DNA of 64,000 bases from assembly GCF_055900595.2 (NCBI RefSeq), contig NZ_CM148325.1. One strand, 5' to 3'. The notes below the pieces were generated by a model that saw nothing but the letters and a program-made list of their open reading frames with translations, was not told the DNA's origin and searched no databases. Both the position numbers and the translations under genes were made by a program. Of the stretch, positions 58,004 through 58,153 are shown piece by piece; position 1 is the stretch's first letter; each line of letters opens with the position of its first letter.

Positions 58004-58153
58004 TCAATGATTTTGTCCGGGCTGGTCTTTTTTACCAACACCAGAAAAGATGTTGAATACTTCACCAAGACCGTAAATCAGACCCAGGATGATGGCCATC
58101 ACGATAGGTACCATGATTACGGCGAATACCAGACTTTTTAATAACTCTAACAT
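58004..58153 (-). CDS. acrZ: AcrZ small membrane protein (AcrAB-TolC accessory)
   Basis: Reverse strand encodes [49 protein letters not shown] (49 aa); terminator hairpin AATGCCCGCTTAGTCGGGCATT downstream; absent from the ORF track because <60 aa. Confidence 0.8.

Follow-up and report, generated by a model that had tools for sequence, protein, structure and literature searches.

A 49-codon open reading frame between modA and modE, read as acrZ in a divergent lineage of Escherichia coli

The DNA analysed here, referred to as the window, is a single stretch of 64,000 nucleotides from contig NZ_CM148325.1 of RefSeq assembly GCF_055900595.2. Between modA (57065-57838, minus strand) and modE (58282-59070, plus strand) it contains a short open reading frame at 58004-58153, and the question raised by this locus is whether so short a frame is a gene, and which gene, when a list of open reading frames displays longer frames in its place. 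A previous sequence-only reading had placed a hydrophobic protein of 49 aa between modA and modE, had identified it as AcrZ, a known small protein of E. coli, and had pointed out that it fell below the 60 aa cut-off of that list; these statements were all borne out. The strand, which had not been given, is the minus strand. The coding sequence consists of 49 codons and a TGA, with the ATG at 58153-58151 and the stop codon at 58006-58004. The mechanically delimited ORF extends from 58004 to 58159, begins at a TTG two codons 5' of the ATG and is 51 aa long, and is thus missing from a list restricted to frames of at least 60 aa. The frames of 65-95 aa that do overlap the locus on the list are located at 57854-58141 (plus), 57820-58068 (minus), 58089-58310 (plus) and 58185-58382 (minus).

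The 49-aa translation matched the Pfam family PF10766 (AcrZ) with 102.5 bits against a gathering cut-off of 26.2 (E 8.5e-30), and residues 1-47 were aligned with positions 1-47 of the 48 in the profile. Identity to AcrZ chains in the PDB (4c48_C and 5ng5_M among them) was 48/49 over the full length, and the same value was returned from entries 4c48, 4cdi, 5nc5, 5ng5, 5o66 and 6sgr/6sgs, the sole mismatch being V17I. The hydropathy of the protein (GRAVY) was 0.99 overall, 2.03 for residues 1-36 and -1.88 for residues 37-49, and the most hydrophobic window of 19 aa covered residues 8-26 with a mean of 3.1. The copy therefore has the features by which AcrZ is recognized: a full-length profile match, a length of ~49 aa, a hydrophobic helix with a polar C-terminal tail, a proline at position 16 and a location in the modE/modABC interval, on the same strand as modA and as a separate unit with its own terminator. 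A scan of the protein against the NCBIfam HMMs returned no family even at E<=1, which is a gap in that library and no argument against the identity of the gene.

Annotation of related genomes agrees with this assignment. In NZ_CP098223.1, which is otherwise ~99.9% identical to the window and does not carry its 38.7-kb prophage, the RefSeq acrZ coding sequence maps exactly onto 58004-58153, and in K-12 the gene b0762 (acrZ) has the same place and orientation relative to modE and modA. The block from 57800 to 58300 (501 bp) was present in 5,391 of 5,426 complete E. coli genomes, where the annotation was always acrZ/modA/modE, and was 100% identical in eight of them. Two of the ~5,390 places at which the acrZ locus was found were on plasmid-typed records, and at least one genome had two copies. 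Taking together the translation, the Pfam and PDB matches, the RefSeq coordinates and the codon-position bias described below, we identify the minus-strand frame of 49 aa as acrZ, formerly ybhT, in an intact and ordinary form. The reading that best explains the locus, to which we assign a probability of about 0.97, is that of a chromosomal acrZ gene, forming an independent unit and encoding an accessory protein of AcrB, in a divergent lineage of E. coli.

An exact comparison with AcrZ had been proposed as the test of this identity, and the outcome depended on the reference. The comparison with K-12 failed by one residue; a G to A substitution at 58105, which converts GTC to ATC, is the sole change in the coding sequence and produces V17I (codon 58105-58103, directly after the P16 codon CCT at 58108-58106). 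The comparison with the catalogued RefSeq I17 allele succeeded; WP_032302722.1, named 'MULTISPECIES: multidrug efflux pump accessory protein AcrZ [Escherichia]' and found on 491 contigs, is the identical protein, with no difference at the acrZ locus. Isoleucine at position 17 is also native in E. fergusonii, Buttiauxella noackiae, Pseudocitrobacter and another member of the Enterobacteriaceae. The mismatch with K-12 is therefore no refutation, because the protein matches a named allele exactly and I17 occurs naturally elsewhere. In other respects the K-12 protein (YbhT, b0762) and the window copy are alike, sharing a length of 49 aa, 48 of 49 residues including P16, a 5' intergenic region identical at 128/128 nt and an identical terminator stem. 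The differences are V17I and one substitution at 58000, between the stop codon and the terminator stem, while the adjacent genes of K-12 are 3-8% diverged from those of the window. Structures of the K-12 protein are available for AcrB-AcrZ (PDB 4C48/4CDI), for AcrABZ-TolC (5NG5/5O66) and for AcrBZ in lipid discs (6SGR/6SGS).

The locus was compared as DNA with E. fergusonii, Salmonella, Klebsiella and Kosakonia alongside the window and K-12, and the order modF-modE<>acrZ-modA-modB was kept in the four relatives. The acrZ coding sequences of the four genera compared in this way showed 13-24% nucleotide divergence. Across the six taxa the variable columns were distributed over the three codon positions as 12/7/35, and pairs from different genera had 10-21 synonymous against 4-11 non-synonymous codon changes; we read the 12/7/35 bias as a clear coding signature. 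A homologue search returned 413 proteins, all with PF10766, across the Enterobacteriaceae. In an alignment of 22 named sequences of 49 aa from ~15 genera, residues 1-34 were almost invariant and P16 was invariant, while the C-terminal tail was variable. AcrZ of other Enterobacteriaceae (E. fergusonii, Salmonella, Klebsiella, Kosakonia, Buttiauxella and others) is in every case 49 aa long and resembles the window copy in synteny, Shine-Dalgarno sequence, -10 hexamer, upstream GCAC block and terminator hairpin, but differs from it in residues 35-49, with protein identities of 78-90%.

These comparisons bear on two other gene models. The frame might be open by chance, or the real gene might be a longer frame that overlaps it (95 aa, plus strand, or 82 aa, minus strand), and the four frames of 65-95 aa are indeed those that a track of at least 60 aa would show. 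None of the four had a Pfam match above cut-off, the best being DUF5760 with 16.1 bits against 27, and they were rejected as alternative genes on this ground; it is the acrZ frame that varies mainly at third codon positions and keeps its first 34 residues nearly unchanged across genera, and AcrZ has been solved in complex with AcrB. A chance frame is accordingly so improbable that this model may be regarded as already refuted. The alternative that the true product is a form of 51 residues (MTMLELL...), initiated from the TTG at 58159, has in its favour the mechanical ORF, which starts at that codon, and the annotation of a 51-aa 'ybhT precursor' in the genomes of E. coli CFT073 and others. The ORF in the window can be no longer than 51 aa, as a TGA stands in frame seven codons 5' of the ATG. 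The ATG is preceded at a distance of 6 nt by a Shine-Dalgarno sequence GGAG (58160-58163, minus strand), and both are invariant in the six taxa. The TTG (58159-58157) in contrast directly abuts the GGAG with no spacer, and in its place E. fergusonii has TTA, Kosakonia has TCG and Klebsiella has a TGA in frame. Since the ATG and GGAG are constant where the TTG is neither spaced nor kept, the product is taken to be the 49-aa form, which is also the length of the protein that has been crystallized and studied by cryo-EM and the length annotated by RefSeq and in K-12. The form of 51 residues is considered highly improbable. A translatome study gives the Shine-Dalgarno sequence of b0762 ybhT as 'TCTGGAGT' (PMC5230787).

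The statement that the gene has its own downstream terminator was likewise upheld. An intrinsic terminator, detected by scanning, folding and conservation, lies at 57964-57997 on the minus strand and starts 6 nt past the stop codon. The hairpin (57997-57974) is composed of the stem GAATGCCCG, the loop CTTAGT and the stem CGGGCATTT, giving 9 bp of which five are G-C pairs, and is followed by the T-rich tract TCTTTTTCTC (57973-57964), which is interrupted. Its folding energy is -13.6 kcal/mol (z -3.45) and 0/200 shuffled sequences folded as well. The hairpin is conserved across genera, being in register in five of the six sequences compared, with two pairs changed on both sides in a compensatory manner; Klebsiella has a terminator hairpin of its own that is one base out of register. 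Further 3', immediately before modA, an inverted repeat CGTTATATTGTCGCCTACATAACG is found at 57858-57881 on the minus strand, which we take to be the ModE operator of the modABC promoter. Its half-sites are near-invariant in the six taxa, with five of six sequences agreeing at one position and all of them elsewhere. This inverted repeat marks modABC as a separate and separately regulated unit 3' of the acrZ terminator.

Upstream of the gene, a -10 hexamer TAGAAT (58187-58182, minus strand) was located by cross-genus conservation together with the published 5'-UTR of 22 nt for ybhT (PMC5230787); the T, A, A, A and T of this hexamer are invariant in the six taxa. Transcription would then start near 58175 on the minus strand and leave a 5'-UTR of 22 nt. 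A simple sigma-70 scan of 57700-58400 detected no promoter-like site and no full -35/-10 pair, and the missing pair is what would be expected of an activator-dependent promoter. A block CGCACAAAAGGGGAGTG at 58207-58223 (minus strand) includes a GCAC element and either borders on the -35 region or overlaps it. This block hardly varies among E. coli, E. fergusonii, Salmonella, Klebsiella and Kosakonia, in contrast to the intergenic sequence on either side. From its conservation and position this block is a candidate binding site for MarA, SoxS, Rob or RamA; it has no match to the 20-nt marbox consensus within three mismatches. Next to it, at 58224-58238 on the minus strand, is the marbox motif CCACGCAAAGCTGAC, which is the site given for the modE<>acrZ MarA ChIP-seq peak in E. 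coli (PMC5684230, Table 1) and which occurs as one exact match in the window against 0 expected by chance. A scan of the window with the marbox consensus, allowing three mismatches, yielded 139 matches against 144 expected, which is chance level; the sole match in the modE-acrZ intergenic region (58223-58241, three mismatches) coincides with CCACGCAAAGCTGAC and is to be read with the whole scan at chance.

Published work supports regulation from this region. All four regulators bind modE<>acrZ in Salmonella (PMC10268841), and in Klebsiella the ybhT promoter is bound by RamA, with 3-fold activation in vitro (PMC4310594). Co-regulation of acrZ with acrAB by MarA, Rob and SoxS is stated in PMC4462101, which relays Hobbs et al. 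(2012). The Salmonella ChIP-seq motif in the modE-acrZ intergenic region differs from the one called in E. coli (PMC10268841 and PMC5684230), and the conserved block is a third sequence; each of the three is a candidate for the activator site. These data support a monocistronic acrZ whose transcription runs leftward (minus strand) from an activator-dependent promoter between modE and acrZ and stops at the gene's own intrinsic terminator before the modABC promoter, with translation from the ATG at 58153 and GGAG as Shine-Dalgarno sequence. By the literature, it would be co-induced with acrAB by MarA, SoxS and Rob, and by RamA in Klebsiella and Salmonella.

acrAB lies outside the window. Z0117EC0005, a genome with the identical acrZ allele, carries acrB along with acrA and acrR, and F196Y and H596N are the only differences between its AcrB and that of K-12. 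By the established topology of AcrB, residues 196 and 596 are periplasmic and away from the membrane groove. Co-adaptation of AcrB with V17I was considered and rejected, there being just these two differences, both outside the membrane domain.

AcrZ, with its N-terminus out and its C-terminus in, associates with AcrB at the transmembrane part of the pump and makes cells more resistant to a subset of the pump's substrates (PMC7267776). The same study found that binding requires a bend around P16, that the overall bent and hydrophobic shape of AcrZ is recognized rather than specific residues, and that AcrZ and cardiolipin jointly change the drug-binding pocket of AcrB allosterically. The export aided by AcrZ is that of chloramphenicol, tetracycline and puromycin, according to PMC4462101, which relays Hobbs et al. 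(2012). AcrB binding, the effect on resistance and the regulation are well established for the K-12 protein, which is 98% identical to the present one. The product of the gene would be a 49-residue single-pass protein of the inner membrane, with a helix over approximately residues 1-36, a kink at Pro16 and a short polar cytoplasmic tail. On the basis of the literature it would dock on the RND pump AcrB, in a groove of the transmembrane domain, and, with cardiolipin, would retune the drug-binding pocket such that more chloramphenicol, tetracycline and puromycin is exported.

Two further readings accept the gene but differ on its unit or on its activity. By one, acrZ would belong to the molybdate system, being co-transcribed with modABC through a leaky terminator, so that efflux would be tied to molybdenum cofactor metabolism. 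The gene is on the same strand as modA and 165 nt 5' of it, its placement beside modE and modA is kept in five genera, and some read-through is conceivable given the interruption in TCTTTTTCTC; a tie to molybdoenzyme-related compounds is also suggested by Hobbs et al., as relayed in PMC4462101. Weighing against this are the strong terminator with covarying pairs past the stop codon in all genera, the conserved operator that modA has immediately upstream, and the binding or activation of acrZ by MarA, SoxS, Rob and RamA, as for acrAB (PMC5684230, PMC10268841, PMC4310594). No ModE regulation of acrZ was found in the literature covered, and the demonstrated partner of AcrZ is AcrB. A molybdate link is thus thought to be unlikely. 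By the other reading, I17 would alter the helix bend or its packing on AcrB, next to the Pro16 kink, and shift the drug-specific boost to efflux. The residue is next to P16, AcrB binding depends on the kink there, a P16G V17G double mutant binds AcrB and yet fails to restore chloramphenicol resistance, and prolines moved or added nearby raise or lower resistance (PMC7267776); the allele is in addition rare in E. coli, where I17 was found in 8 of 5,426 complete genomes and V17 in 5,383 (queries of 55 nt centred on the SNP, with a 28-nt seed that had to span it). The position of the residue beside P16 and the loss of function in the double mutant leave a small chance of a subtle effect. Valine to isoleucine is, however, a conservative swap between two beta-branched residues, and isoleucine is the native residue in the four other members of the family named above. 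V17 is also outside the interfacial residues picked for alanine scanning, whose single replacement had no strong effect, in keeping with recognition of shape over specific residues (PMC7267776). No transmembrane change hinting at co-adaptation is found in the AcrB of the same lineage, and the allele simply tracks a lineage ~4% diverged from K-12. An altered function is accordingly very unlikely, and V17I is most likely neutral in the AcrZ that we describe.

The divergence of the host lineage was evident over the whole chromosomal part of the window. The non-prophage backbone (1-6874 and 45587-64000) was 3.95% diverged from K-12 over 25.3 kb, spread rather evenly at 1.5-7.2% per kb, and 14 of 5,391 E. 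coli records were at least 99% identical over 57800-58300; the host is a minority, divergent lineage that is labelled E. coli in RefSeq. Within this backbone the segment 57933-58349, which covers acrZ, its promoter and its terminator, had 2 differences from K-12 in 417 nt against ~16 expected, and a minimum of two or fewer differences per 417 nt was reached in 0.85% of permutations. The same 25 kb contained other low patches, with 1 difference at 54094-54510 and 3 differences at 60695-61111. As two other patches are equally or nearly as low, patchy mosaicism or local conservation is suggested, and the patches may possibly be short recombination tracts or regions of local constraint. A nucleotide constraint special to acrZ was rejected in view of these comparable patches and of synonymous sites that diverge freely; the acrZ sequences of K-12 and E. 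fergusonii differ at 13.6% of nucleotides. The stretch 57882-57933, just upstream of the modA operator on the side of the acrZ terminator, holds eight of the ten differences from K-12 in this intergenic region, including a 1-nt indel.

The remainder of the window is occupied largely by a prophage of ~38.7 kb (6875-45586), inserted between ybhB and ybhC. At either end stands an exact copy of the lambda att core GCTTTTTTATACTAA (6860-6874 and 45587-45601), the two being direct repeats on the minus strand, and an ORF of 356 aa (44443-45513, plus strand), of the size of an integrase, is located just inside its right end. Over its left 25 kb the prophage resembles P22 (Lederbergvirus), matching Escherichia phage JEP4 at 66% coverage and 96.2% identity, with the tailspike, portal and DNA-transfer proteins included. 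The appearance is that of a P22-like phage that uses the attachment site of lambda. In a search of the whole window against Rfam no match was obtained at the acrZ locus. The only match at gathering threshold was naRNA4 (RF02564; 47000-47070, minus strand, 71.9 bits), a REP-type nucleoid-associated RNA element that is located, by position, in the ybhC-ybhJ intergenic region. The marbox-scan matches at 46971-47136 reveal near-duplicate repeats at this place.

The sequence-only reading had also warned that genes of less than 60 aa in the window need to be called manually. This was fair, although for the chromosomal part it concerns acrZ only, which is the only annotated CDS below 60 aa there in both NZ_CP098223.1 and K-12. 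In the closest sequenced relative of the prophage, 8 of 60 annotated CDS are shorter than 60 aa. With acrZ as the sole chromosomal case and 8/60 in the phage relative, the warning applies mainly to the prophage. In public databases AcrZ entries are often over-extended at the N-terminus to 51, 58, 66, 70, 79, 80, 83 or more aa; among them are those of E. fergusonii ATCC 35469 and C. rodentium ICC168, which are labelled 'putative outer membrane or exported'.

The gene described here is already known, a textbook small protein in a conventional copy that offers no novelty, and its biology adds nothing new. Its practical value is as a positive control for a length cut-off, as at acrZ the limit of 60 aa hides one real and functionally important gene and displays four spurious ORFs of 65-95 aa. 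The I17 allele is a minor lineage marker, and it matters only if it is shown to change AcrB modulation; were that the case, V17I would be a naturally occurring variant of an allosteric small-protein modulator, and its effect on resistance would be measurable.
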